Positions 13,832 to 27,826 of a stretch of 32,000 nucleotides of DNA are shown here, piece by piece. The stretch spans positions 540,001 through 572,000 of the forward strand of contig NC_006512.1 of the NCBI RefSeq assembly GCF_000008465.1, in the 5' to 3' direction. Numbering within the stretch: the first letter of the stretch is position 1; the number at the start of each line of letters is the position of its first letter. Both the position numbers and the translations under genes were made by a program. The notes beneath the pieces were generated by a model. It was not told the origin of the DNA, searched no databases, and saw nothing but the letters and a program-made list of their open reading frames with translations. This stretch comes from Idiomarina loihiensis L2TR (GTDB taxonomy: Bacteria > Pseudomonadota > Gammaproteobacteria > Enterobacterales > Alteromonadaceae).

Positions 13832-13887
13832 GTAGCCTGACATTTATGTCAGGTGAGATATTGGCCCTGACATAAATGTCAGGCTAC
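13832..13887. repeat. REPIN-like element of the same subfamily as 2215-2270, in inverted orientation; marks the left edge of the accessory island
   Basis: gtagcctgacatttatgtcagg + tgagatattggc + cctgacataaatgtcaggctac. The spacer is close to the reverse complement of the 2237-2248 spacer. A degenerate extra REP head, ccatgtacctgacatg, sits at 13808-13823. Confidence 0.85.
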
Positions 13888-14596: not shown

Positions 14597-14613
14597 TAAA
14601 GGTGGCGACGCTG

Positions 14614-15858
14614 ATGAATAAACCCTTACTTGAGCGGTATACAAAGGAGAGTCTATTAGACGCTCTAGAAGACACTCCCGTTATACTCATACATGGCTCG
14701 CGACAATGCGGAAAAACAACGCTTGCTAAATCTGTTGGTGAAGTGCTGGGTTATGCCTACATTACTTTCGATGACGAAAACCAATTGGGCGCAGCAAAAG
14801 CTGATCCTGTTGGCTTTGTAAAAAGCTTGCCTGAGAAAACTATATTAGATGAAATTCAGCGCGTTCCTGAACTTTTCCTCTCAATAAAAGAGAGCGTAGA
14901 TGCTAACAGGGTGCCTGGTCGGTTTATTTTAACGGGATCTGCCAATGTTCTACTCTTACCTCAGTTGTCCGACTCTCTTGCTGGAAGAATGGAAATTATA
15001 CACCTAAGACCGCTAGCTCAGTGCGAAATTACAGGCCAAAAACCTAACTTTCTGGCGTCTCTATTTTCCGAAAGCTTATTCTCCGCTGTCACTAATAAAA
15101 AAACTGCTTCGCTGGGAAGCTCACTGGCCGATATCCTTGTCCAAGGAGGCTACCCTGCAGCCATTCAAAGAAAAGCAGCTAAACGTCGCAATGCTTGGTA
15201 TCGAGGTTACATTACAACTATTTTACAAAGAGATATTAAGGACTTAGCGAACATTAGAAACGTCAACTTGTTGCCAAAGCTGCTCTCGTTGGCCGCTTCA
15301 CAAACAGGACGGCTGTTTAACTCCAGTGAGCTAGCATCTCCATTTTCTGTTAGTCGCCCGACGGTTCGTGAATACCTGGCCTTACTTGAACAAATATTTC
15401 TTATTGAGGAATTATCTCCCTGGCACAGCAATCGAATTAGCCGCCTTATAAAAACCCCAAAGTTGCATCTATCGGATACCGGGCTTGCTAGTTCACTACT
15501 GGGGGTAAATGCTGACGAGCTTTGGAAAGATAAAGAATTATTGGGACAATTGCTGGAAACTTTCATTTATCAGGAGCTTAGAAAACATGCGAGTTGGCAT
15601 GATGAGGATCTGAAGTTCTACCACTTCAGAAACAAGGACAAAGTGGAAGTTGATATTATCATTGAGAAAGGCCGTTTAAAGGCAGGTATAGAAGTAAAAG
15701 CGGCGGCAACTGTAAAGCAGTCAGACTTCAAAGGCCTGATTAGACTTAAAGATGCCTGTAAAGGTGACTTCGCTGGTGGGATTGTTTTTTACGACGGGGA
15801 GCAAGTCCTGCCTTTTGGTGACAAACTTTACGCTGTTCCAATATCCCACCTGACGTGA
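14614..15858 (+). CDS. AAA_14/DUF4143-type ATPase with a PD-(D/E)xK-like C-terminal motif
   Basis: Walker A HGSRQCGKTT and Walker B-like TILDEIQ are present. The C-terminus reads ..KVEVDIIIEKGRLKAGIEVKAA (D...E-x-K). I preferred ATG 14614 (AAGGTGG upstream) to GTG 14602. Confidence 0.75.
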   Translation: MNKPLLERYTKESLLDALEDTPVILIHGSRQCGKTTLAKSVGEVLGYAYITFDDENQLGAAKADPVGFVKSLPEKTILDEIQRVPELFLSIKESVDANRVPGRFILTGSANVLLLPQLSDSLAGRMEIIHLRPLAQCEITGQKPNFLASLFSESLFSAVTNKKTASLGSSLADILVQGGYPAAIQRKAAKRRNAWYRGYITTILQRDIKDLANIRNVNLLPKLLSLAASQTGRLFNSSELASPFSVSRPTVREYLALLEQIFLIEELSPWHSNRISRLIKTPKLHLSDTGLASSLLGVNADELWKDKELLGQLLETFIYQELRKHASWHDEDLKFYHFRNKDKVEVDIIIEKGRLKAGIEVKAAATVKQSDFKGLIRLKDACKGDFAGGIVFYDGEQVLPFGDKLYAVPISHLT

Positions 15859-15868
15859 ACATCAGGTG
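15847..15868. terminator. Short hairpin that contains the stop codons of both convergent genes
   Basis: cacctga-cgtgaaca-tcaggtg, a 7-bp stem. TGA of the + gene (15856-15858) and TGA of the - gene (complement of 15862-15864) both lie in the loop or stem. The CCTGA/TCAGG arms resemble the REP core. Confidence 0.4.
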
Positions 15869-17253
15869 ACACTCACCCCATACCGCTCGCGGATCTTAGC
15901 CGCCAGTGCCAGCCGTGCATCGGCTTCGCCATGAATTAACCGTATGCGCTTAACCGGTTCTTCGGTGGCGTCAATAAAGTCCAGCAGCTCCTGCTGGTCG
16001 GCGTGGGCGGAGTAGCCGCCTAAGGTATAAATGCCGGCTTTAATCCAGACCCGCTCGTGGTCAAGCTCAACATAACCGCCGTCCGGGCCATATTGCTGAA
16101 TATCCCGCCCAGGCGTACCCGCTGCCTGATACCCGACAAACAGCACATCGGTGCGAGGGTCGGGCAATAAAGCTTTTAAGTAGTTAAGCATGCGTCCGCC
16201 GGTACACATACCGCTGGCAGCAATGACTATGCAAGGGTCACCGCTACTCTGCAAAAGGTTCACAATGCGCTCGTGTTCGCTGTGCTCATCTACCGTCAGC
16301 AAGCGGTCAAAATTAAGCGGATGGCGATCATCACTTAAACGCTTGCGAGCTTCTTCGTCCCATAAATTCTTCATTGTTCGGTATTGTTTTGTGAACTGCA
16401 CAGCCAGCGGGGAATCCAGAATAACGGTCATTTTATGCCAAACTTTATTCACCTCACCGGTTTCAGCTTCCTGCTCACGCGCGGTGTGAATAATGTCTTC
16501 CAGTTCGTACAGCAGCTCCTGAGTGCGACCAATACTAAAAGCCGGAATTAAAATAACGCCTTTGTTCTCCACACAACGCTCAACTACCGCCTTTAACCGC
16601 TGAGACCGATCAATGCGGGACTCATGGTTTTTGTCGCCGTAGGTGCTTTCCAGCAACAGAAAGTCAGCACGCTCTAATGGCGTAGGGTCGGGCAGTAGTG
16701 GCGTATTTTTGCAGCCTAAGTCACCAGAGAACACCACGCGGTAGTGGGTACTCACATTCTCAATTTCAACGTAGGCCGAACCCAGAATATGCCCGGCTTG
16801 ACGAAAACGTAGCTTAAAGCGCTCAGAGGCAAACTCAGTAGGCAGTTCAATCCATTTATCGTAAGCCGTAGGCCGCAGTTGGCGATGCAAACGCGCAATA
16901 ACCGCATCAATAATCTGGGCGTTTCGGGTTAACCCAATTTTCAGGGCGTCTTCAATAACCAGCGGCAGCAACAGTGCGGTAGCTTTGGTGCAGTATATGG
17001 GACCGACAAAGCCCGCAATAAGCAACCAGGGCAAACGGCCTACGTGGTCAATGTGGCAGTGAGTCACTACCAGCGCCTGTACCTTGCTTATATCAAAGTC
17101 TATTTCCTGGGCGTTAGAATTCGCGCCGGAACCCGAGGTTTCCGCCCCCTGAAACAGCCCGCAGTCAACTAAAAGTGAGTGGTCACTGTCTAAAAAAAGC
17201 TCGTGGCAAGAGCCCGTAACCCCTTCAAACGCGCCGTGGTGTATTACGTCCAT
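15862..17253 (-). CDS. MBL-fold beta-CASP family hydrolase (RNase J/CPSF73-like nuclease)
   Basis: HCHIDHVG (HxHxDH), ESTYG and GGYSAHADQQELLDFI (beta-CASP motif C region) are present. I preferred the start at the second Met (MDVIHHG; AAAGGAA 8 nt upstream). The ORF-track start at 17271 has no RBS. Confidence 0.8.
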   Translation of the reverse strand: MDVIHHGAFEGVTGSCHELFLDSDHSLLVDCGLFQGAETSGSGANSNAQEIDFDISKVQALVVTHCHIDHVGRLPWLLIAGFVGPIYCTKATALLLPLVIEDALKIGLTRNAQIIDAVIARLHRQLRPTAYDKWIELPTEFASERFKLRFRQAGHILGSAYVEIENVSTHYRVVFSGDLGCKNTPLLPDPTPLERADFLLLESTYGDKNHESRIDRSQRLKAVVERCVENKGVILIPAFSIGRTQELLYELEDIIHTAREQEAETGEVNKVWHKMTVILDSPLAVQFTKQYRTMKNLWDEEARKRLSDDRHPLNFDRLLTVDEHSEHERIVNLLQSSGDPCIVIAASGMCTGGRMLNYLKALLPDPRTDVLFVGYQAAGTPGRDIQQYGPDGGYVELDHERVWIKAGIYTLGGYSAHADQQELLDFIDATEEPVKRIRLIHGEADARLALAAKIRERYGVSVT

Positions 17254-17285
17254 GTGTTGGTTCCTTTCCATTGCTGATTATGGGC

Positions 17286-18110
17286 CTACATCGAATTCAA
17301 CTTTTCGGTTAAAAATTTCTGATAAGCAGTTAAGTCGAACAGGCTGGCGGTAACTAAGTGGTGGACGGGGATGGTCAGTGAGTATTGATTAAGAAAATCT
17401 TTTATCTGCAACTCAGTCGCATCAGACGAAAGCTCAGCCGAATAATGTTTTTCATAATGTTCAGTCAGTTGAAGCTCTAAGGTGCTTTCGTCTTGGTAAC
17501 CACTGTGCATAGGTACTAAAACAATATTACTGCATACACCGCGTGTAATATCACATCGAATTAGGTTTCCGATATAGACTTTTCGGTTGCTCAATACTAC
17601 TCGTACCAACATTCGTTTGTCAGGAGATTCATCGCCATTATGAGGAATGAAGTCATCCATTTCTAATGCTCTCAGCAGAAACAACTCGAGCTCGTCATCG
17701 ACTAGCTTGTGTATTAAGAATTTACTGTTATTTTGTTTCCAGTTAGCATCCGCTTTACTCTGAAATTTAGTAACGCTTAAAAAGGAAATTACTAAACCTA
17801 TAGTAAAAAGCAGAAGCACTGACGATTTGTCGGGCTCAACTCCTCCAGGTGAACCAGTGAGTGTTTGCATTGCAACCCATGCTGAAGATAGCGAACCTGA
17901 TACTACTAGTGTTATGAGTCCCCATAAAAGCAAGAGTAAAAAAGTAGCGAAGACAGCACCGAAAAGAATCACTGTACCGCTAATGAACAATGTAATAGCT
18001 AGCCTCGAGGGAACTAGACGGTTAAGTTTTAGTTTGCCAAGTTCGGTGGAGTTAAGGTTTGCATAACCTAAAACAGAGACAAGTAGAACAATAAGGGGAG
18101 TAACGACCAT
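17286..18110 (-). CDS. Hypothetical multi-pass membrane protein with a ~150-aa C-terminal soluble domain
   Basis: A strong RBS (AAAGGAGG) precedes the ATG. It has 3-4 hydrophobic helices in the first ~115 aa. I recognise no family for the C-terminal part. Confidence 0.6.
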   Translation of the reverse strand: MVVTPLIVLLVSVLGYANLNSTELGKLKLNRLVPSRLAITLFISGTVILFGAVFATFLLLLLWGLITLVVSGSLSSAWVAMQTLTGSPGGVEPDKSSVLLLFTIGLVISFLSVTKFQSKADANWKQNNSKFLIHKLVDDELELFLLRALEMDDFIPHNGDESPDKRMLVRVVLSNRKVYIGNLIRCDITRGVCSNIVLVPMHSGYQDESTLELQLTEHYEKHYSAELSSDATELQIKDFLNQYSLTIPVHHLVTASLFDLTAYQKFLTEKLNSM

Positions 18111-18130
18111 CCTTGGCCTCCTTTCTAGAT

Positions 18131-18316
18131 TTAAGCGGTGAGCTCCTGCTCTTTGCGTTTCTGATTAATTTTCTTCTGTAATTCGCGCAACACAGCATCG
18201 TTATTTTCGTCGATGCGTCCAATAATCGCTTGGCGAACTTTTTCGTTGGCTAAGTTTACCGACAACATTCCATTGTTATCTATAACCACCGTTGGTTGTT
18301 TTACGGGAACTGTCAT
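18131..18316 (-). CDS. Hypothetical 61-aa protein, first gene of the minus-strand operon
   Basis: GGGAGG RBS lies 5 nt before the ATG. The C-terminus is a charged helix (LRELQKKINQKRKEQE). A TGnTATACT extended -10-like box is at 18354-18362 on the minus strand. Confidence 0.5.
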   Translation of the reverse strand: MTVPVKQPTVVIDNNGMLSVNLANEKVRQAIIGRIDENNDAVLRELQKKINQKRKEQELTA

Positions 18317-18415
18317 AGAACCTCCCTCAATGAGCTTGTTTTGGATTAAACAAAGTATAGCAGATTTTTGAAAAATGCGAGTCTAGTAGCTTTCTTTGAA
18401 AAATTCAGCGTCAAC

Positions 18416-18459
18416 TTTCAATCAGCCGAAGCTTTACTTTCAATTAGCCGCAACTAAAA
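18416..18459 (+). repeat. Two head-to-tail 22-bp repeats, cores TTTCAATCAGCCG / TTTCAATTAGCCG (array B)
   Basis: Units start at 18416 and 18438, in the same orientation and phasing as arrays A and C. Confidence 0.8.
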
Positions 18460-18547
18460 GCGCACTAAAACCTATAAATGGTAAAACATTAAAACCTAGA
18501 AAACATAACGGGGTGACTGCCGTCAGTCTACAAATTTTAGTGTTATA

Positions 18548-18615
18548 GTTATGTATTAAATGGCATTTAATGCGACAGTTATGTCAAATTATTGTTTTTG
18601 CGCTATAGTTATGTC
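18548..18615 (+). promoter_or_regulatory. Three AGTTATGT direct repeats exactly 30 bp apart, plus an 8-1-8 palindrome, upstream of the Fic gene (candidate operator/promoter)
   Basis: AGTTATGT occurs at 18548, 18578 and 18608; copies 1 and 3 extend to TATAGTTATGT. ATTAAATGgCATTTAAT is at 18556-18572. TATAGT at 18605-18610 could be a -10 box 32 nt before the ATG. Confidence 0.35.
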
Positions 18616-18641
18616 TACTACTAAAAAGCAGCGGGTGCTTT

Positions 18642-20129
18642 ATGGCTGAATTGTATTTCTCAACAACAACAGAACAAAGTCGCGAATTGACTCGCCGGGA
18701 GAAAAAGGGCGAGCTAAAGCGCCTGTATCGGGGAGTTTATACTGATGCTAGTTACGAAGAGTTAACGAGTCTGGTTCTAAGAGACTGGGCTAAGATAGTT
18801 AATTATTTGCTACCTAACGCTATAGCGGCTTATAGAACGGCTCATGAACTACGTCCAGTAGAAGGCACCGTGTTTGTCGCTGATGCCGTGGCGGCGCGCA
18901 GAACCATCGATATTGCGTCCATTTTAACTATTTATATTTGGCCGGGTTCAACCAGCGACCTTGTCGAACCGTTTTTGCCCGAAATGAAGCGCTCCGCACC
19001 AGCTCGTCAGTATTTAGAAAACTTAACGGTGAGTCGCTCTAAAGTAAAAAAGAGCCTGGGCCAAAGTTGGGTGGAGGAGCGCCTGTGTATTGAACTTAAA
19101 CGAACCAATAATGAAGATAGTTTGAATCAGATACGCGACCAAGCACGAGTGTTTGCCAATAGACAGGGGTTTGAAACTGAGTTTGAAAAATTAAATGCTA
19201 TCATAAGCGCTTTGTTGACAACCCATTCAGGTGAATCGATATTAAAAACCGAAGTGGGCATGGCTAGTGCTAAGCAAGAACCGTTTGACGTGCATCGCAT
19301 TGCACTGTTTAAAGACCTGGCCAATTACCTTAAGCGCTGTCAGTTACCCAAATTACCTTATGAATACAATAAGTCTGGTTGGAATCATCTCGCTTTTTTC
19401 GAAAGTTATTTTTCAAATTACATAGAAGGCACAGAGTTTGAGATTGACGAGGCGGAACAAATCGTCTTCCAACGCAGTGAAATTAATAATCGACATGCAG
19501 ACAGTCATGATGTTCTTTCTATCTACGACCAGGTGGTCGACTACCAAGGCATGAGCATTACACCCGAAACACCTGACGAACTAATTAAAAGTCTGCAGCG
19601 CCGTCACTTCGAATTTTTGTTTGAGCGCCCCGACAAAAACCCCGGGCGATTTAAATCGAAAGTAAACAAAGCCGGTAGCAGCACTTTTGTAAGCCCAGAT
19701 GATGTCGTAGGCACACTAACGCAGGCATTTTCCATTTATAAGTCTGTGCCTGAGGGGCTAGCCAGAGCCATATTCTTGCAATTTTTAGTGTCAGAATGTC
19801 ATCCATTTGACGACGGTAACGGCCGGCTGTCACGTATAATGATGAATGCTGAGCTGCACGCAGCAGGCGAATACAAACTGATAGTACCGACAGTGCATCG
19901 AGACAGTTACTTAAACGGCCTTAGAAAAGCCACTCGCGATAGAAACTTTAAAACCCTGGTAAAAGTGTTCTACCAACTGCAACGCTATACCGCATCTATA
20001 GACTGGGCGGACTATGGTGAAGCAAGAGATACGATCGAAGCGCATAAAGCCCATTTGTTACCTGATGAAGGCATTGCTGATTTTAACCGGCAGATTCGGC
20101 AATACCGGTTTACTCCGCCGGTCACGTAG
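18642..20129 (+). CDS. Fic-family protein (AMPylase-type) with an internal inhibitory-helix motif and a long N-terminal extension
   Basis: Canonical Fic motif HPFDDGNGRLSR. The upstream SNYIEG fits the (S/T)xxxE(G/N) autoinhibition motif. The N-terminus ..KKGELKRLYRGVYTD resembles AbiEi-type wHTH antitoxin N-termini. The stop TAG is supplied by the GTAG of the following REP. Confidence 0.88.
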   Translation: MAELYFSTTTEQSRELTRREKKGELKRLYRGVYTDASYEELTSLVLRDWAKIVNYLLPNAIAAYRTAHELRPVEGTVFVADAVAARRTIDIASILTIYIWPGSTSDLVEPFLPEMKRSAPARQYLENLTVSRSKVKKSLGQSWVEERLCIELKRTNNEDSLNQIRDQARVFANRQGFETEFEKLNAIISALLTTHSGESILKTEVGMASAKQEPFDVHRIALFKDLANYLKRCQLPKLPYEYNKSGWNHLAFFESYFSNYIEGTEFEIDEAEQIVFQRSEINNRHADSHDVLSIYDQVVDYQGMSITPETPDELIKSLQRRHFEFLFERPDKNPGRFKSKVNKAGSSTFVSPDDVVGTLTQAFSIYKSVPEGLARAIFLQFLVSECHPFDDGNGRLSRIMMNAELHAAGEYKLIVPTVHRDSYLNGLRKATRDRNFKTLVKVFYQLQRYTASIDWADYGEARDTIEAHKAHLLPDEGIADFNRQIRQYRFTPPVT

Positions 20130-20181
20130 CCTGACACTTGTGTCAGGTGAGCTCTCGTTCCTGGCACAAGAGCCAGGCTAC
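20126..20181. repeat. REPIN-like element (subfamily CCTGACACTTGTGTCAGG) with a degenerate second arm
   Basis: gtagcctgacacttgtgtcagg + spacer + cctggcacaagagccaggctac. Confidence 0.75.
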
Positions 20182-20285: not shown

Positions 20286-20329
20286 TTTCAATTGGACGGA
20301 GCCAAACTTTCAATCAGCCGCGATGCAAG
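20286..20329 (+). repeat. Two head-to-tail 22-bp repeats, cores TTTCAATTGGACG / TTTCAATCAGCCG (array C)
   Basis: Units start at 20286 and 20308. This array combines the core variants seen in arrays A and B. Confidence 0.8.
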
Positions 20330-20466
20330 CTGTCGTAGTCACTCCATAAACTCCTTGCAATCTTTACAAAACTTTTGCACTGTCTGTTTCTCTAGAATGT
20401 TAATAAAGTCCCAATTGATGTCACGGATAGGCTTTTACCGCCTAATATTATTTAAAAGGAATTTCA

Positions 20467-22932
20467 ATGAGTTGTGCAGCAGTTGGTGAGTTTATGGCTC
20501 ACCTGATCATATCCGACGAACATATTCATGCTGACCAAATTGTTATGCTCAGAGAGTTTATTGAATTATATGGTTTGGAGAATGATCAGGAGAAAATCTT
20601 CAAAGTATTAGAAGGAAAAGGAGAGGAGAGACTCCCTCAGCTTTATAAAGAATTAGAGCAACTCAGTAAGAAAGAACAAGAAATACTGATTGAAAACTCA
20701 GCCGCAATTGTCGGTTTTAATCGACATTTTGCAAAGCAAGAAAAGCAGGTAATCGCTACTCTATGCAAAGCTGCAAACATAGAGCCGTCAGAACTAATCG
20801 CCGCTGTAAATGACATTATCGAAAACTCGACAAGAGCCTTTAATGACAGGCTCGCTTCACCTGAGATCCAGGATAAATACAGTACGGTAAGCTTAAAGGT
20901 TCGTCGATTTTTTTCGAGGGGAGCCAAGCGAGAATACTTAACGACGAAAATAAAAGAAAGTGAACTGTCAGGGCCTGAGTATGGCAACGCAATAAAGAAG
21001 ACCGGTGAAATAGCAGAGAAGGACTGTCAGCTGGTTGAAGCTGAGCTTTCCAAAATCTTCTCCGCCTTAGAAAGCACCCGCAATGAATTTCAAAGCGTTA
21101 TCAAAGAGAACTCGATAGATAGAAACAAAGCCAGCGAAGACGAAGTTAATTTCCACACCTTTCTCGTTGATTTAAATGACCGGCTTGATAAGCAAGCAAA
21201 AGAAAGCAATGAAGAGTTAAAAGACCTGGTGGATAAGAAACGCCGGGCAAAAAATGCTTTTACTATCGCTCTTATGGGCAGAACAAAGGCGGGAAAGAGC
21301 ACTCTGCACTATGTTATGACCGGCGAAGGTAAAGAGTTTATAGGCGTAGGAGCTGAGCGGACAACCCGGTTTAATCGAGTTTACGAATGGGAAAACTTGA
21401 AACTAATTGACACCCCAGGTATTGGAGCTGCCGAAGCCGGGGGCCGCTCAGATGAAGAAATTGCGTTAAGCGTTGTGGATACCGCCGATGTTATTTGCTA
21501 CGTAGTAACGAGCGACTCAGTTCAAGAAGTGGAATTCAAGTTTTTATCTCAAATCCGTAATAGTAATAAGCCCGTTTTTGTTCTTCTGAACTACAAAGAG
21601 AATATAGAGTCGCCACCGCCTCAATATAAAAAGTTTGTCAAATCTCCACTGCACTGGTTTTCTCGTGACGATGAGAAAAATATACAAGGAACTGTTAACC
21701 GCATAAAGCGAGGCATCGAATCGTACTATGATGGTAACTCCGTCACGATAGTTCCTGTTCACCTAATGGCAGCAAAAATGGCAATGGATGATCGCTGCAA
21801 AGCTGACAAGACAGCTTTCCGCAGCGGTTCGCGAGTTGATAACTTTTTTAATGAAATCCGTGAAAACGTTATTGAATTAGGTCAACTAAGAAAGTCACAG
21901 ACGCTGCTTGATAATACGGCTTGCCGCTTGTGCCGAATGTTGTCTGTGGTTAGAGAAAAGCAAGAGAGCTCAGTAAAAGTAGCGAAGGATATAGAGAACA
22001 AACAGCAAAAACTTTTAAAGTTAATTGATAAGCAAGTAAAGAAAAATAAATCTGCATTTATTAGAGAACTCAAGCTTACTATGGAAAGCGAGCATGGTTC
22101 AGCTAAAGACTTTGCATCAGAAAACTATAAAGGCAAAAAGAAGGATATTGAACGCAACTGGAAAAAAGAAGCAGAGCGAATTGACCAGCAGTTGAAGGAA
22201 AAACTGGAAGTAAAATTGAAAGACTCGGCCGCTGTAGTCCAAGAAGCCGTAAATGAAGCAATGGAGGACATCGCGATAGGTTTTGACGCCATAAGAGAAG
22301 CGGACTTCGATGAGCAAAGTACGTTTAATACAAGTCGCTTGATGTCAGCTCTGGGAGCGTTAATGTCTACAGGTGGCGGAGCTGCCCTTATTATAATTGG
22401 TTCAATGTCGACTCCCGCAGGTTGGGTCGCAGCCGGATTCGTGGTTGTAGGGATATTCGCTGGTTTTTGCTCAGGCCTGGTAAAGTCGAAAGAGCGAAAA
22501 AGAAAAGAGGCTATTGATGCAATTCTTAAGCAAGCCAATAAAAACTTAGATGACCTGGAGCAAAGTTACACCGAGCAAGTGGATAAACTTTTTGAAGAGT
22601 TTCATGAAAAAGCCTCCAGACAATTATCTAGGGTGTTGTCTCGCGTGTCGGAGCAGTACCGAAACTCTGCAAATCTGCTTACACCGTATTGTAACTCGCT
22701 AAACAACGCCATTAATGAACTGAACCAACAGTTTGCTGTTCGCATCATTGAGTTCGCACGTGACGAGCAACTTCCCGAAGAGCGTATTGGTGAGTTAAAA
22801 GTCACTCGTGACTTAGGTAAGAAAACCGAAATTGAGACTAGTTTAAGGATTTCAGAGCAGGGCATACAAAGAGCGGAAAAAGCATTAAGAGAAAAACTAA
22901 CGGTAAAAACATTGGCAAAAGGTGTGCAATGA
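20467..22932 (+). CDS. Dynamin-like large GTPase with a TerB-like N-terminal domain and a C-proximal membrane hairpin
   Basis: G1 GRTKAGKST (nt 21277-21300), G3 DTPGIG and a G4-like NYKE are present, with long coiled-coil stalk segments. A hydrophobic hairpin ALGALMSTGGGAALIIIGSMSTPAGWVAAGFVVVGIFAGFCSGLV is encoded at about 22342-22482. The N-terminal ~130 aa has two TerB-like acidic helical repeats (AHLIISDEHIHADQIVMLREFI ; AAIVGFNRHFAKQEKQVIATLCKAANI). AGGA lies 7 nt before ATG 20467. Confidence 0.75.
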   Translation: MSCAAVGEFMAHLIISDEHIHADQIVMLREFIELYGLENDQEKIFKVLEGKGEERLPQLYKELEQLSKKEQEILIENSAAIVGFNRHFAKQEKQVIATLCKAANIEPSELIAAVNDIIENSTRAFNDRLASPEIQDKYSTVSLKVRRFFSRGAKREYLTTKIKESELSGPEYGNAIKKTGEIAEKDCQLVEAELSKIFSALESTRNEFQSVIKENSIDRNKASEDEVNFHTFLVDLNDRLDKQAKESNEELKDLVDKKRRAKNAFTIALMGRTKAGKSTLHYVMTGEGKEFIGVGAERTTRFNRVYEWENLKLIDTPGIGAAEAGGRSDEEIALSVVDTADVICYVVTSDSVQEVEFKFLSQIRNSNKPVFVLLNYKENIESPPPQYKKFVKSPLHWFSRDDEKNIQGTVNRIKRGIESYYDGNSVTIVPVHLMAAKMAMDDRCKADKTAFRSGSRVDNFFNEIRENVIELGQLRKSQTLLDNTACRLCRMLSVVREKQESSVKVAKDIENKQQKLLKLIDKQVKKNKSAFIRELKLTMESEHGSAKDFASENYKGKKKDIERNWKKEAERIDQQLKEKLEVKLKDSAAVVQEAVNEAMEDIAIGFDAIREADFDEQSTFNTSRLMSALGALMSTGGGAALIIIGSMSTPAGWVAAGFVVVGIFAGFCSGLVKSKERKRKEAIDAILKQANKNLDDLEQSYTEQVDKLFEEFHEKASRQLSRVLSRVSEQYRNSANLLTPYCNSLNNAINELNQQFAVRIIEFARDEQLPEERIGELKVTRDLGKKTEIETSLRISEQGIQRAEKALREKLTVKTLAKGVQ

Positions 22933-24596
22933 ACTTCTCAGAGAAAGCAGAAAGAATTACCTCACTAAAGACTCAAGTGTTCGAGGTATTAAATGAGTAT
23001 CCGGGCTACGAAAACCTGCGGAATAAGCTAAGTTCGGAGCTAGATGAAAAAGAACAAGACTCAAAACTTCGCCTTGTTTTCGCGGGCCAGTATAGCTCAG
23101 GTAAGTCTTCTATTATCTCGGCACTAACAGATAATAAAAGCATAAAAATAGACTCCGACATTGCGACGGATAAGTCTGAGGATTACGAGTGGCGATCGGT
23201 TACGTTAACCGACACTCCCGGGATATCAGCGGGCCGACCTGATCACGATAAGGTTACTCACCAAAGAATCCAGCATGCGGACATACTTGTTTATGTGGTC
23301 ACATACTCGCTATTCGACAATGTTCTTATAGAAGACTTTAAAAGGCTGGCGATTGATTACAACTACAAGCACAAAATGGTTTTAGTCGTTAATAAAATGT
23401 ATTCGGAGGAAGGCGAGTATGACCAGCTGTGTGAGACTTACCTCAAAAATTTAGAGCAACAGATAGGAAAAGAAACGATTCAGCTTATGCCTGTGGCATT
23501 TGTGTCTTCGGGTAATGCTTTGGAGGAGGATGCCGATTTTCATCCCTATGGTCATATGGATGACTTAGTAAAGTTGCTTGATGACATGATAGAAAAGAAT
23601 CAGTCGTTAGCAGGTGTTGAGGCTGTAGCTCAAATTATCGCTACACACATAGAAGACGAGCTGGCTACTAAGGTGGAAGGCACAACGAAGGAAGAGCAAT
23701 TACTTTTACAGCGCATTGAAAGAGTGATCTCTCAAATTAAAAAGGACGCCGAATCGGCACTGAGAGAAGAAGCCTCAAGAATAAAAGCATTAGCTAAAAG
23801 CATGGGCAGCGAAAATGCTTTAAATGTTGGAACTAGCGAGACACTAGAAGAGGATGTACAAGCGTCCTCTGAACTGCTTAACACAGAAGCACATAACGCA
23901 TTTGATAATTTGACAGCACGTTTTGATGAACTGGATAAAGAGCTTGATAGTGAATTGTCGGAGCTAAATGACAGCAACTTAGCTGAACAGTTTTTCATGA
24001 GGTTTGAAGAAAATTCCTCCGAGAATTCGCTAGGCGAGACTCCCGATATTGGCGATGCCGCTGATTTTGCCGTAGCGAATCAGCTGTCAGCGTTACTAGG
24101 TCGTGGGAGCGGAGCTGTCGCCAGTAAGGCTATGGGCGCAAAAGCGGGTGCCGGCTTGCTTAAAGCGAGCGGAGCCTCAGGTAGTTCAGTTCACCAAACG
24201 GTATTGCAAGTGGGTAAAGCTTTGGGAGTTAAATTTCAGCCGTGGCAGGCAGTTAATATCGCCAAAAACATCGGTAATGTGGCTAAAGTATTAGGCCCTA
24301 TTATGGCGGCATTGCCGATTATATTTGAAGGCATCGATATTTATAATGAAGAAAAAAGAGAGAAAAAAATAGCAGAAGCTCGCAGGAATATCCGCGAACA
24401 GTTTCAAGATGCAGGTGACCAGATAACCCAGCAAATGAAAGACTCCGCAGGCGAGTTTATAACTGCAAAGTATGGTCAGCTATTAGAGGAAATTAGTAAG
24501 CTACGGCGCGCCAGAATCAATGAAGCGCAAAATTTAGAAACTTGTGGTCAGAAGCTAAAGTCACTCTCCAATAGCCTTCGTGAAGTTTTGGTTTGA
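22929..24596 (+). CDS. Second dynamin-like GTPase, translationally coupled to the first
   Basis: ATGA overlap at 22929-22932. G1 GQYSSGKSS (nt 23085-23108), G3 DTPGIS and G4 NKMY are present. It has a helical stalk and a Gly/Ala-rich hydrophobic segment (GRGSGAVASKAMGAKAGAGLLKASGASGSS ... VLGPIMAALPIIFEGI). Confidence 0.75.
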   Translation: MNFSEKAERITSLKTQVFEVLNEYPGYENLRNKLSSELDEKEQDSKLRLVFAGQYSSGKSSIISALTDNKSIKIDSDIATDKSEDYEWRSVTLTDTPGISAGRPDHDKVTHQRIQHADILVYVVTYSLFDNVLIEDFKRLAIDYNYKHKMVLVVNKMYSEEGEYDQLCETYLKNLEQQIGKETIQLMPVAFVSSGNALEEDADFHPYGHMDDLVKLLDDMIEKNQSLAGVEAVAQIIATHIEDELATKVEGTTKEEQLLLQRIERVISQIKKDAESALREEASRIKALAKSMGSENALNVGTSETLEEDVQASSELLNTEAHNAFDNLTARFDELDKELDSELSELNDSNLAEQFFMRFEENSSENSLGETPDIGDAADFAVANQLSALLGRGSGAVASKAMGAKAGAGLLKASGASGSSVHQTVLQVGKALGVKFQPWQAVNIAKNIGNVAKVLGPIMAALPIIFEGIDIYNEEKREKKIAEARRNIREQFQDAGDQITQQMKDSAGEFITAKYGQLLEEISKLRRARINEAQNLETCGQKLKSLSNSLREVLV

Positions 24597-24617
24597 GTTA
24601 GGGCTTTTCATGTCTGT

Positions 24618-24650
24618 ACGCTCCTGGACGTTATTCAGATCCAGGAGCGT
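24618..24650. terminator. Bidirectional hairpin between convergent GTPase genes
   Basis: acgctcctgga (24618-24628) pairs perfectly with tccaggagcgt (24640-24650) around an 11-nt loop. Confidence 0.6.
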
Positions 24651-24660
24651 TATTCACACT

Positions 24661-25941
24661 TTAAGCTAAATCAAGGCAGTCAGAGTCTTTTCCTAATTTT
24701 TCTGATAAAAAGTTGCGAAGAAAACCAAGCACTTCGTCTCCACCAATGGCCTTTTCCATCAATCTGGGATCTGGGTCAAAAGCGGTTTCAAAAACGGCTT
24801 TTATCAAAGAGCTTTTGCCAGAATTAAGCTCAAGGCGTTCATTAATACTATTAATCAGAGCTTCTTTATCCGCATCATTTTTCGGCGTATCTACTTTATT
24901 AATGCATAAAACAACCGGACGATTATAGCGTTTTAGCTTTTCAAAGGTTTCTAGCTCTGTACCTGTAATACCGCGTTGAATATCAACCACCCAAACAAAC
25001 ACGTCGGTGTGAATTAAGTAGTCTGCAGTGTTCTCATTCACCTCATGCTCGCTGTCATGGAAACCGGCATAGTTCATAACGGTTGCGGCTTCGTTAAGTG
25101 CATAGGCTTCAGCTTTACTCGTTGAACCGGGTACGGCACTAACATTATTTGTATCAACGCCAAACGTTTCACGAATTAACGAGTCTTTGCCGCACGAACC
25201 TTCACCCACAATGCCAATATTAACTCTTTTTTCTGCCAGTTGACGCAACATAGCTATTTGCACAACCGCGGGTATGGTTTTCCGGTAAGCCGGGCCTGCA
25301 AGGTCAAAAGCAAGCCAGAGTCCTGAAGCAAACCAGCCTACAGGGCCTAAAGCCACGCCAATTGTTCGGGTTACCAGAATATTTCCGCCGAAGGTTAAGC
25401 CTCTGTTGAGTAATGCTCTGGCAATATAGTTGGCAATAATGACCGCCATTCTATAAGTGCTGAAGCCTAGCGAACGTAGCCCCAGCTGAGTTCCCATGAC
25501 CGATAGTGCGGCTGGTATTTTCGTGGTTTCGTAACCAAACTCTAATAAAAGTTCGGACTTCTCTTCTTCACTCATTTCAGCTACTGCATCTGCGAACAGC
25601 TTGCCAATAATGAGATCTTCGTTTTCCTTAGCTAAGTTGGTTTTACTCACATCGGCTTTTAGCTTTAAACCCACGTCATACACAATTTCACTGTAGTAAG
25701 AAGGCTCCGTAAAGACAGACTTCAAACTGTTGCTACCAGCGTCTCTCAAGTCATTGATGAGTTGTTCTGCATGCTGTTCTTTTACAAAGTAATTTGCCGT
25801 ATTACCTGTTTGTTGCTGAGCCTCACGTGCTGCGATTCCAATTGAGCGCTGCAGGTCTTTATCAACTTTTAGATACTCTACTAAAGGTAAAATGTCGGCG
25901 TAATGTGTTTTACACAGTGTTTCTACTGGATGATTATTCAT
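24661..25941 (-). CDS. Fusion protein: YaaW/UPF0174-like N-terminal domain plus a C-terminal Era/MMR_HSR1-type small GTPase with atypical G motifs
   Basis: The N-terminal half (..YSEIVYDVGLKLKADVS.. ; ..GPAYRKTIPAVVQIAMLRQ) resembles E. coli YaaW as recalled (..AYRVTIPAVLQIACLRR). The C-terminal half has G1 GEGSCGKDS (Asp where Ser/Thr is expected), a G3 position NYAG (Asn for Asp) and G4 NKVD. AAGGA lies 7 nt before the ATG. Confidence 0.65.
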   Translation of the reverse strand: MNNHPVETLCKTHYADILPLVEYLKVDKDLQRSIGIAAREAQQQTGNTANYFVKEQHAEQLINDLRDAGSNSLKSVFTEPSYYSEIVYDVGLKLKADVSKTNLAKENEDLIIGKLFADAVAEMSEEEKSELLLEFGYETTKIPAALSVMGTQLGLRSLGFSTYRMAVIIANYIARALLNRGLTFGGNILVTRTIGVALGPVGWFASGLWLAFDLAGPAYRKTIPAVVQIAMLRQLAEKRVNIGIVGEGSCGKDSLIRETFGVDTNNVSAVPGSTSKAEAYALNEAATVMNYAGFHDSEHEVNENTADYLIHTDVFVWVVDIQRGITGTELETFEKLKRYNRPVVLCINKVDTPKNDADKEALINSINERLELNSGKSSLIKAVFETAFDPDPRLMEKAIGGDEVLGFLRNFLSEKLGKDSDCLDLA

Positions 25942-25998
25942 AATTTTTTCCTTGTTTGTTATTTCAGAAACAATCTAGAGATTGCTGATATACATACA

Positions 25999-26013
25999 GC
26001 AACAAAGGTGCCA
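25999..26013 (-). promoter_or_regulatory. Sigma-54 (-24/-12) promoter driving the YaaW-like/GTPase gene
   Basis: The minus strand reads T-TGGCAC-CTTTG-TTGC-T, an exact match to TGGCAC-N5-TTGCW. The -12 GC lies about 58 nt upstream of ATG 25941. An EBP-like gene is encoded divergently. Confidence 0.72.
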
Positions 26014-26155
26014 ACTTTAATTTTTTAAATTAATATATTAAATATCAACATCTTAGCTGTTAATTAGGTTTCATCAGATAAAACCGCGTGTTAATAAATA
26101 TTAATTTAAATTAAGATAATTCAAATCAACTGAAATTTTTTAATTTGAGGCTGGC

Positions 26156-27769
26156 ATGAAAAGAGATTATGAGCACTTAGAGGCGAACTTATCGTGTTTG
26201 GTTAGCCGCTATTCGGAAGATCCAGAGCAGGCTAAACAAGTATTTTCGTCACTTTTTCACGAGTTTCTAACCGGCGAAATTGGCAAACAGCTTAAGCACA
26301 GCTTAAAGGAAAGGTATGAATCGATAACTCCCCCCTCTGACGAGGCGAGCAAACTTTTTAACGTGCTGAGTAAAAAATCAGACGAGAAGCTTATTGAGCT
26401 AATGTCAGAGCTTTCAGCTGCTGAAAGAGGACGGGAATATGGAGAGCTTGGTTTAACGCATTTGTCTGCTCAGTTACGTCGCCCACTTGTGCTGCATTTA
26501 TGTGATGCACTATTTAAACCAGAAAACTCAAAGCTGTTAGATGAACTCGTTAATTACCTTATCCAGTCAGGTATGCGAAGCCTTGACTCGAATATGGCGC
26601 TGAGATGGGAGTGGACGGAAGAGCTCAATGACAGAGCAAAGGAGTTTTTAGCTAAGTTACAACTTGCTGTAGCAAAAGACGGCGTTCCCGATTTAGATAT
26701 GAATAAGGAAGGGCCCGTCATGATCTGTGGTCCAACGGGTTCAGGTAAAACGTTAATTGCAAAGCTGCTGGCCGACTCACTCTTTGAGAGCAAGCTTATC
26801 AGTCTTAATATTGCGGCAGTAACCGACAGCGTCCTGGAAAGCCGAATTCGGGGGCATACGAAAGGAGCGTTTACTGGTGCCAGCCAACAAGTAAAACCAA
26901 TATTCGCGAGTGCCCATAACGGCGTCCTGGTGTTTGACGAGCTTCAGTCTGCTTCCCGGCAATCACAGACTCAGTTATTAGACTTGTTGCACTCAATAAG
27001 CGATAAGGTTCAAGTCGCTCCTATGGGGAGCCACGAGTCGAGTTTATATCAGGTCAGGACATTGTTTCTGGTCAATGAGCCGTTAAATGAGTTATTAAAC
27101 AGTAATGAACTTCGCCTGGACTTTCTCCATCGTATGCGGCAAATCGTTACATTCCCGAGTTTGCATGAGCGTTTAAACCAAAAAACGAAAAACTTAAAAC
27201 TGCTGCCGGCACTCATTTCATTAATGAAGCTTTCGTTCATATTAAATTATTCGTCTGATGGCCACTTCTCCGATATATCGCGTGCACAGCTGTTCGACAT
27301 TATCTGGAACCTGAAGCTGGAAGATGAAGCCGAGGCACAACTTCGTCATTATTCCTGGCCTGGCAACCTACGTGAATTTGAGCGGTTATTTACCGACTTG
27401 TTTCATGAGCAACTTCTGCTTGATCGTAAAAGCAATACAATAAAATTGATTAAAAGAAGTTTCTTCCGAGATTTTGCCTTAGCCACCGAACAGCGGCAGG
27501 CTGAAGCAAAAGGGTTAGGAGATGAAAACAGACTGAGTGAAGCCGAAAGCTCTGACTTAAATGAAGTTGAGCAATTAAAAGTAAAATTAGTGTCAGATGC
27601 ATTAAGAGAAAACAACTTTGTGCTGAAGGATACCTACGAAGCATTAAAGAACTATGATGTCGGTTTGGGTCACCATAAAGCACTGAAACTGTTCCTGCTA
27701 GGTTATACAGCGCATTTTCCGGAAGGCATACGACACTGGATTAATGAGAAGCATGTTCAGAACGCGTAA
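26156..27769 (+). CDS. Sigma-54-dependent enhancer-binding-protein-like AAA+ ATPase with an unassigned N-terminal domain
   Basis: Walker A GPTGSGKT, an exact GAFTGA loop (RGHTKGAFTGAS; nt 26864-26881), Walker B VLVFDEL and SWPGNLREFE are present. The C-terminal ~60 aa is helical and could be a Fis-type HTH. The first ~185 aa is helical with no receiver/PAS/GAF/CARF signature that I can see. Confidence 0.8.
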   Translation: MKRDYEHLEANLSCLVSRYSEDPEQAKQVFSSLFHEFLTGEIGKQLKHSLKERYESITPPSDEASKLFNVLSKKSDEKLIELMSELSAAERGREYGELGLTHLSAQLRRPLVLHLCDALFKPENSKLLDELVNYLIQSGMRSLDSNMALRWEWTEELNDRAKEFLAKLQLAVAKDGVPDLDMNKEGPVMICGPTGSGKTLIAKLLADSLFESKLISLNIAAVTDSVLESRIRGHTKGAFTGASQQVKPIFASAHNGVLVFDELQSASRQSQTQLLDLLHSISDKVQVAPMGSHESSLYQVRTLFLVNEPLNELLNSNELRLDFLHRMRQIVTFPSLHERLNQKTKNLKLLPALISLMKLSFILNYSSDGHFSDISRAQLFDIIWNLKLEDEAEAQLRHYSWPGNLREFERLFTDLFHEQLLLDRKSNTIKLIKRSFFRDFALATEQRQAEAKGLGDENRLSEAESSDLNEVEQLKVKLVSDALRENNFVLKDTYEALKNYDVGLGHHKALKLFLLGYTAHFPEGIRHWINEKHVQNA

Positions 27770-27770
27770 T

Positions 27771-27826
27771 GTAGCCTGACACTTGTGTCAGGTGAGACAC
27801 CGGCCCTGACACAAGTGTCAGGCTAC
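27771..27826. repeat. REPIN-like element (subfamily CCTGACACTTGTGTCAGG); marks the right edge of the accessory island
   Basis: gtagcctgacacttgtgtcagg + tgagacaccggc + cctgacacaagtgtcaggctac, with perfect inverted arms. Confidence 0.85.

Follow-up and report, generated by a model that had tools for sequence, protein, structure and literature searches.

An Eleos-type dynamin pair and a predicted sigma-54-gated JukA-GTPase module placed tail-to-tail in a variable island of Idiomarina loihiensis

Two described anti-phage systems are close to the locus reported here, a block of four genes (A to D) in a 32,000-nucleotide stretch of the Idiomarina loihiensis L2TR chromosome; this whole stretch is referred to as the window. 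The first is a two-gene dynamin system, which was cloned from Bacillus vietnamensis and protects against the jumbo phages AR9 and PBS1 only, with both P-loops being required (bioRxiv 10.1101/2022.05.11.491447). It is present in approximately 1% of genomes, mostly beside other defence systems (Millman et al. 2022), and was later named Eleos (Cury et al. 2022). The second is Juk, in which JukA senses ejected PhiKZ factors at the entry site in Pseudomonas, and where pre-made JukA allows the system to act within minutes on the ejected phage proteins; JukA is paired with dedicated Xre-family transcription regulators, fusions between JukA and Ras-like GTPases are listed, and the word "sigma" is absent from the main text of the preprint (bioRxiv 10.1101/2022.09.17.508391).

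We report that the block, which covers approximately 7.5 kb, probably consists of two independent modules placed tail-to-tail in a variable defence island of I. loihiensis, an Eleos pair (A and B) and a predicted sigma-54-gated Juk-type module (D and C). All four open reading frames (ORFs) are intact, with A, B and D on the forward strand and C on the reverse strand. The stop codon of A overlaps the start codon of B (ATGA), C and D diverge from a shared AT-rich spacer of 214 bp, and folding predicts a stable hairpin (24620-24649; -23.3 kcal/mol, z -4.3) where the 3' ends of B and C meet. This hairpin adjoins a cassette breakpoint at the C stop codon and is probably a bidirectional terminator or insulator. 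With respect to source, the I. loihiensis chromosome CP005964.1 is a 100% match to the window over 17.3 kb, gene C is 100% identical to an annotated I. loihiensis GTPase, and megablast of the block against 5,426 complete Escherichia coli genomes gave no match; an enterobacterial O-antigen locus, to which the nearby ugd and wzz genes had pointed, was thus rejected. A preliminary description had interpreted the block as one integrated four-gene system. Its account of the four genes and their domains, of the sigma-54 promoter and of a REPIN on the right-hand side agrees with our ORF predictions, Pfam and PADLOC matches and repeat search, while the single system itself is contradicted by the distribution of the four gene families.

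The C-family scan comprised 79 loci (one genome per species, 10-kb flanks), fetched with an alignment of 29 YaaW-GTPase fusions. BLASTP with A, B, C and D against all ORFs of these loci, a search that picks up even the similarity of the A and B GTPase domains to each other (28-30% identity), gave no relative of A or B within 10 kb of a C-family gene (0/79). The A-family scan comprised 80 metagenome loci, 79 of which are not from Idiomarina, and in these neither a C relative nor a D-type bacterial enhancer-binding protein (EBP) was identified (0/79); C is present on the sole Idiomarina-like contig, where A is 95% identical, and a D-type EBP in none of the 80. Within Idiomarina, two assemblies (L087 and L090) have C (100% identical) and D (98.7% identical) and lack A and B. 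Here, homology ends exactly at the C stop codon and resumes in a Fic gene remnant, and the 4.5-kb A-B segment is swapped for genes encoding a 303-aa protein, a GIY-YIG protein and a peptidase M78. The sole other place where all four genes are found is a close Idiomarina relative (L084-L086; A and B 89%, C 93% identical), which represents retained synteny and not independent evidence. Hence, because of the lack of co-occurrence in both directions and the cassette swap in L087 and L090, the quartet is not a conserved unit, an outcome that the preliminary description had itself named as refuting its model; A+B and C+D are separate. The quartet is a lineage-specific juxtaposition in a cassette-swapping island, and the adjacency of the two pairs is probably due to defence-island clustering with no shared mechanism.

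Genes D and C are, judged from gene order and promoter sequence, a conserved module of their own, composed of an EBP, a predicted sigma-54 promoter and a JukA-GTPase. In the clade of fusions of approximately 415 aa, 16 loci include the upstream DNA and could be assessed. A D-like EBP is encoded divergently upstream of the C relative in 16/16, and a TGGCAC-N5-xxGC site faces C in all 16 intergenic regions, where the background of 0.117 sites per kb and strand in these loci gives approximately 0.035 expected per 300-nt region. The EBP and sigma-54 promoter that the preliminary description regarded as dedicated to the YaaW-GTPase are consequently a real feature of these loci. The sources are Halopseudomonas, Pseudomonas, Rheinheimera, Pantoea, Citrobacter, Symbiopectobacterium, Paraburkholderia, Simplicispira, Vibrio metoecus, Acinetobacter, other Burkholderiaceae, an uncultured alphaproteobacterium, Polyangiales and Lentisphaerae. 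The D relatives were drawn from the C-family loci; a direct homologue search with D gave 12 hits and was swamped by generic EBPs.

Moreover, in 15 of the 16 loci a small protein of approximately 115 aa, referred to as c2, is encoded between the sigma-54 promoter and C (e.g. L001:9414-9860, L005:9442-9876 and L012:9465-9842, and 12 other loci). Its N-terminal part is alpha/beta, whereas the C-terminal half is hydrophobic, rich in Gly and Ala and closed by a conserved AH motif; the protein is not modelled in PADLOC 2.0 and gives a weak, sub-threshold match to the Pfam Gly-zipper 2TM family (E 0.004). c2 is missing from the Idiomarina and Lentisphaerae loci, and a hidden Markov model (HMM) built from 15 c2 proteins and the Vibrio c16 protein gave no hit in the window. 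The best-scoring segment of the window with this HMM (E 0.11), the Gly/Ala-rich paddle of B, was rejected as low-complexity noise. The module occurs in defence or mobile contexts: it adjoins BREX genes, or Tn7-like genes together with BrxR and a type I restriction-modification system, and it is present on an Azospirillum plasmid with integrase and resolvase genes. In Vibrio parahaemolyticus it occupies the cargo hotspot between traN and ssb/bet/exo of a conjugative element of the SXT/R391 kind. An assignment of the latter site to SXT defence hotspot 5 was rejected since traN-s063 is hotspot 4 according to Wozniak et al. 2009, and we refer to it only as a variable cargo hotspot.

Gene D (26156..27769, forward strand) encodes a predicted EBP of 537 aa, which matches Sigma54_activat (PF00158) with 97.6 bits (cutoff 20.2) and has the motifs KGAFTGAS, GPTGSGKT and VFDELQ. 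Foldseek matches of the AAA+ core include NtrC1, DmpR and PspF, and only the AAA+ core was matched. Residues 470-533 were modelled by AlphaFold2 as a helical bundle (predicted local distance difference test, pLDDT, ~80), which is a putative DNA-binding domain. The N-terminal region is different: a phmmer search with residues 1-185 against 1.84 billion representative proteins identified no relative besides D itself, Pfam at E values up to 1 gave noise only, AlphaFold2 predicted helices at pLDDT 40-59, and the region aligns poorly even within the D family. As far as sequence comparison can tell, it is a true orphan region that evolves fast, in keeping with the orphan sensor domain of the preliminary description. 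The names of PADLOC RtcR profiles hinted at a CARF domain in D; this was rejected, the RtcR_PspF alignments starting at residue 184.

Facing C, the predicted -24/-12 promoter TGGCACctttgTTGC (TGGCAC-N5-TTGC; 25999..26013, reverse strand) is positioned approximately 58 nt upstream of the C ATG, and it is the sole site that scores 10/11 in the window on both strands (64 kb). Sigma-54 promoters have essentially zero basal activity. The window, which is the part of the genome covered here, contains no rpoN gene for sigma-54 itself. Between this promoter and D there are two AT-rich direct repeats 81 nt apart (26024..26130; repeat families D6 and D10), with the palindromes TTAATATATTAA and TTAATTTAAATTAA, which we regard as candidate upstream activator sites for D; given that they are AT-rich they might also have arisen by chance.

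This layout mirrors that of pspF and pspA-E, with a divergent EBP and a sigma-54 promoter, and raises the alternative that D-C is a Psp-like response to envelope or membrane stress that is induced by membrane damage and does not serve immunity. In NCBIfam, the best matches of D include PspF and NorR, c2 with its Gly-zipper similarity would be a membrane protein, and C has a conserved hydrophobic segment (residues 188-215), all of which are in line with such a role. However, no block protein gave a PspA/IM30 hit in Pfam or NCBIfam, the module is patchy and present on mobile elements and in defence islands rather than in core stress regulons, and C matches in its N-terminal half the full length of JukA, for which activity against PhiKZ has been demonstrated experimentally. 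We therefore consider a pure stress response improbable, while noting that the two readings are compatible insofar as a membrane-damage cue could be the phage signal.

Turning to the other pair, gene A (20467..22932, forward strand; 821 aa) encodes a LeoBC-type dynamin-like GTPase, predicted to be Eleos component 1. It matches PADLOC LeoBC (E 5.8e-88, profile positions 18-570 of 601) and the MMR_HSR1/Dynamin_N GTPase domains, its P-loop GRTKAGKST is intact, a DTPG motif is present and residues 625-674 comprise a hydrophobic hairpin of two segments. The N-terminus is TerB-like, with a Pfam E value of 6.9e-4 over profile positions 7-116/118 and a score of 20.3 bits that does not reach the cutoff of 24.4; PF05099 is carried by many of the more than 1,391 homologues of A. 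Gene B (22929..24596, forward strand; 555 aa), which is translationally coupled to A, encodes a LeoA-type dynamin-like GTPase (Eleos component 2) with a match to PADLOC LeoA (E 3.7e-88, profile positions 38-555 of 559), DLP_helical, MMR_HSR1 and Dynamin_N domains, an intact P-loop (GQYSSGKSS) and a DTPG motif. Of the 67 metagenome loci with room for a B-like gene downstream of the A relative, 56 have one, and every A relative of 51-56% identity precedes a B relative of 58-63% identity, amid other defence-type genes and without C or D. Defence-type neighbours of A/B or their relatives include SNF2/Eco57I, DUF4011 helicase, DEAD/MZB, SoFic, AbiE and PDC-S01. By these profile matches A+B is an Eleos system (LeoBC + LeoA) of a common subtype with a TerB-like N-terminus, and it is an exchangeable cassette without a sigma-54 promoter. 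That dynamin defence loci are two- or three-gene units, as the preliminary description had it, is correct; A+B is itself one of these. A sigma-54-like site before B (at 22913, 9/11) was rejected, since it abuts the B ATG and leaves no space for a transcript leader.

Could the four genes nevertheless act as one system, in which infection or envelope damage leads the EBP to turn on the YaaW-GTPase, which then licenses or recruits a constitutive dynamin pair? The genes are adjacent and tail-to-tail, the quartet is kept in the related Idiomarina lineage, both halves resemble systems active against jumbo phages, and all three GTPases have membrane-affine segments. Against this stand the absence of co-occurrence outside Idiomarina in either direction and the strains that have an identical C, no A+B and a clean cassette breakpoint. 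Furthermore, in two Idiomarina-type contigs (L089:11346-13000 and L092:3339-4993) B is split into ORFs of 264 and 293 aa by an apparent frameshift while A, C and D are intact, the scan of the window revealed no sigma-54 site upstream of A, and the C relatives pair with c2 rather than with dynamins. Taken together, we find a common system very unlikely.

Gene C (24661..25941, reverse strand; 426 aa) encodes a JukA/YaaW domain fused to an Era/EngB-like small GTPase. Residues 9-237 match PADLOC JukA (PDLC04111) with E 4e-40 over profile positions 15-239 of 250, and the GTPase part gives an MMR_HSR1 match over residues 242-349. In Foldseek, the modelled GTPase domain matches Era and EngB, with Era 3iev as top match (E 2.8e-7), and on this structural comparison it is Era/EngB-like, not dynamin-like. 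The YaaW half gave no structural match in the PDB with Foldseek, and residues 141-210 were modelled at pLDDT <50. We did not detect any JukB match in the eight PADLOC-scanned proteins of the window (including all ORFs of at least 100 aa, 14.6-27.8 kb) nor in the scanned neighbours of the relatives; accordingly, D-C is classified as a JukA-fusion variant and not as canonical JukAB.

The nucleotide site of C deviates from the canonical one, having the P-loop GEGSCGKD and the G3 motif NYAG. Nevertheless, GKD and NxxG are invariant in 29 fusion sequences that share 33-47% identity, and the switch-I Thr and the NKxD motif are intact; invariant positions in the family are G246, G248, G251, K252, D253, T274, N290, G293, N348, K349 and D351. 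Because GKD/NxxG is invariant beside an intact switch-I Thr and NKxD, we infer that the site is selected and working, with a rearranged Mg2+ site, and does not belong to a dead enzyme, which makes the earlier suggestion of a probably hydrolysis-defective GTPase doubtful. A degenerating leftover of a three-gene module with a decayed, non-functional GTPase would be consistent with GKD instead of GK(S/T), NYAG instead of DxxG and the missing c2 in Idiomarina, but it is very improbable given that the invariance points to purifying selection, that C is 100% identical over several Idiomarina assemblies and 93% identical in the relative where A and B are 89%, and that the promoter of C is at the -24/-12 consensus.

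Every member of the C family has the P-loop GxGxxGKD and the G3 motif NxxGFxD (gene C residues 246-296). This has the appearance of a paired swap in the Mg2+ site, from Ser/Thr to Asp in G1 and from Asp to Asn in G3, which is not known to have a precedent in other GTPase families. Independently of its setting, the invariant GKD and NxxG site is of some minor biochemical interest.

On the two-module reading, D would be kept inactive by its fast-evolving N-terminal region until a cue appears. Active D would then assemble on the upstream sites, open the sigma-54 promoter (26013..25999) with ATP and turn on C, which in other lineages would be made jointly with c2. The JukA domain of C could target phage entry-site components, as in Pseudomonas, with the GTPase as the likely switch or effector. 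In most other lineages c2 may be a membrane effector, and Idiomarina would have a minimal version without it. As for A+B, by homology with the B. vietnamensis system both GTPases would use GTP at the membrane to block the phage. A more specific proposal is that EBP, sigma-54 promoter, optional glycine-zipper protein and JukA-GTPase form a distinct inducible defence system, in which the sensor-GTPase and a potentially toxic membrane effector are silent until the hypervariable EBP N-terminus detects infection, and which in Idiomarina, with Eleos beside it, might provide layered protection, both modules being related to systems against jumbo phages; we advance this tentatively, as a possibility to which we give less than even weight.

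Several points weigh against the reading as two defence modules. B is LeoA-type according to the PADLOC profile, yet with 85.8 bits against NCBIfam LeoA/HP0731 (NF041922), far under the 325-bit cutoff, it falls outside that curated subfamily. For D, residues 421-537 match no Pfam family and no helix-turn-helix was recognised by Pfam, and both the DNA-binding domain and its binding sites are putative. The D-C pair of Idiomarina, being without the c2 found in 15/16 relatives, may be a reduced or differently wired version. The anti-phage function ascribed to all four proteins derives from homology and neighbourhood. Juk uses pre-made JukA within minutes, whereas sigma-54 gating needs induction before C is made; this is hard to reconcile with a sensor of first contact, the trigger may follow another logic, and a Psp-like role in membrane stress stays a live rival. 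Finally, physical cooperation of C with A or B inside Idiomarina would be compatible with the sequence.

The preliminary description had the block bounded by repeats. The REPIN on the right (27771..27826, downstream of D, perfect 22-nt arms) is real, whereas on the left border Tandem Repeats Finder found no tandem repeat array. The REPIN belongs to one family with four intergenic copies in the window, at 2215-2270, 13832-13887, 20126-20181 and 27771-27826, with arms of 22 nt (GTAGCCTGACAyTTrTGTCAGG) and no copies expected by chance; the copy at 20126..20181 is an imperfect palindrome directly 3' of the upstream Fic gene. Since the same REPIN is present there and at two further sites in the window, the repeats are not unit borders, and the REPIN is a genome-wide element that does not constitute a special boundary of the four-gene block.

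The block is situated in a variable island between lipopolysaccharide/O-antigen genes (ugd, wzz) and other defence-type genes, and a defence-island setting is borne out by PADLOC matches in and around it. The DNA upstream (14602-20129) is likewise defence-island-like. It carries genes for PDC-S01 (14602-15858; PADLOC E 2.7e-164) and for an RNase of the beta-CASP metallo-beta-lactamase fold (15862-17271), which resembles type VII CRISPR Cas14 with 311 bits, far short of the cutoff of 800; these are followed by genes for an unknown protein of 274 aa (17286-18110) and for a Fic protein similar to SoFic/PDC-S04 (18642-20129). In L087 (11282-14594), and also in L090, the cassette in the A+B slot encodes the family-less 303-aa protein, a 481-aa protein with a GIY-YIG nuclease domain and a CapP-like M78 peptidase (PADLOC E 1.6e-19), and may be an uncatalogued defence module.

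Among the relatives of C, a Vibrio/Shewanella clade of 473-aa JukA-GTPases (L015-L018, L020 and L023) has an insertion of approximately 55 residues and no EBP. Upstream of these genes, a WYL-domain regulator and a lipoprotein of 520 aa are encoded, and downstream a c2-like protein of 113 aa; RadC-like and RNase H-like genes are part of the same island. In Geopseudomonas aromaticivorans (L094:8847-10001), approximately 1.1 kb without a called gene separates c2 from the JukA-GTPase, a distance that elsewhere is <100 bp; the gap may be an insertion or an uncalled gene. Standalone JukA genes without the GTPase (L027:3123-5653 and L045:8328-10657) are likewise accompanied by a divergent sigma-54 EBP and a site resembling -24/-12, and EBP control may be older than the GTPase fusion, or wider than it.

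The outcome is that an apparent four-gene 'multi-GTPase' system resolves into two recognisable pieces, which removes a false lead. The remaining interest is the dedicated sigma-54 EBP that in Pseudomonadota, Polyangiales and Lentisphaerota is kept beside JukA-GTPase genes. Should the module serve defence, it would illustrate clearly how the transcription of an immune effector can be switched in an all-or-none, ATP-gated manner, and the -24/-12 promoter of C would give an experimental handle on the signal that a Juk-type system answers. Full-text literature searches and defence catalogues yielded no paper that links a sigma-54 EBP to phage defence or to YaaW. Thus, the EBP/sigma-54 gating and the c2 partner of the JukA-GTPase appear to be undescribed, while the JukA-GTPase fusion itself is already known.

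Compared with Eleos, which is related to LeoABC of enterotoxigenic Escherichia coli (ETEC) H10407, A+B has the same consecutive, coupled dynamin-like GTPases with near-full-length profile matches, intact P-loops, a membrane hairpin/paddle, a site in a defence island and a pair kept together in relatives. It differs in that A has a TerB-like N-terminal domain, which is common in the family and not highlighted in the Eleos papers, and in that B scores well under the curated NCBIfam LeoA/HP0731 cutoff; its host is a marine gammaproteobacterium. The D-C module shares with PspF/pspA-E and RtcR/rtcBA the divergent EBP with a GAFTGA AAA+ core, the -24/-12 promoter and, as predicted for D-C, a small operon that is silent until a damage signal. 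Unlike in these systems, the regulated gene is a JukA-GTPase without a PspA/IM30 partner, and unlike RtcR, D has an orphan N-terminus and no CARF domain, the PADLOC RtcR profiles covering the AAA+ part alone. In comparison with Juk of Pseudomonas aeruginosa (JukA/JukB, 'jumbo phage killer'), C has a full-length homologue of JukA/YaaW in its N-terminal 237 residues. D-C is set apart from Juk by its effector candidate, a fused Era/EngB-like GTPase with GKD and NxxG, by its dedicated sigma-54 EBP and by the glycine-zipper membrane protein that most of its relatives add.

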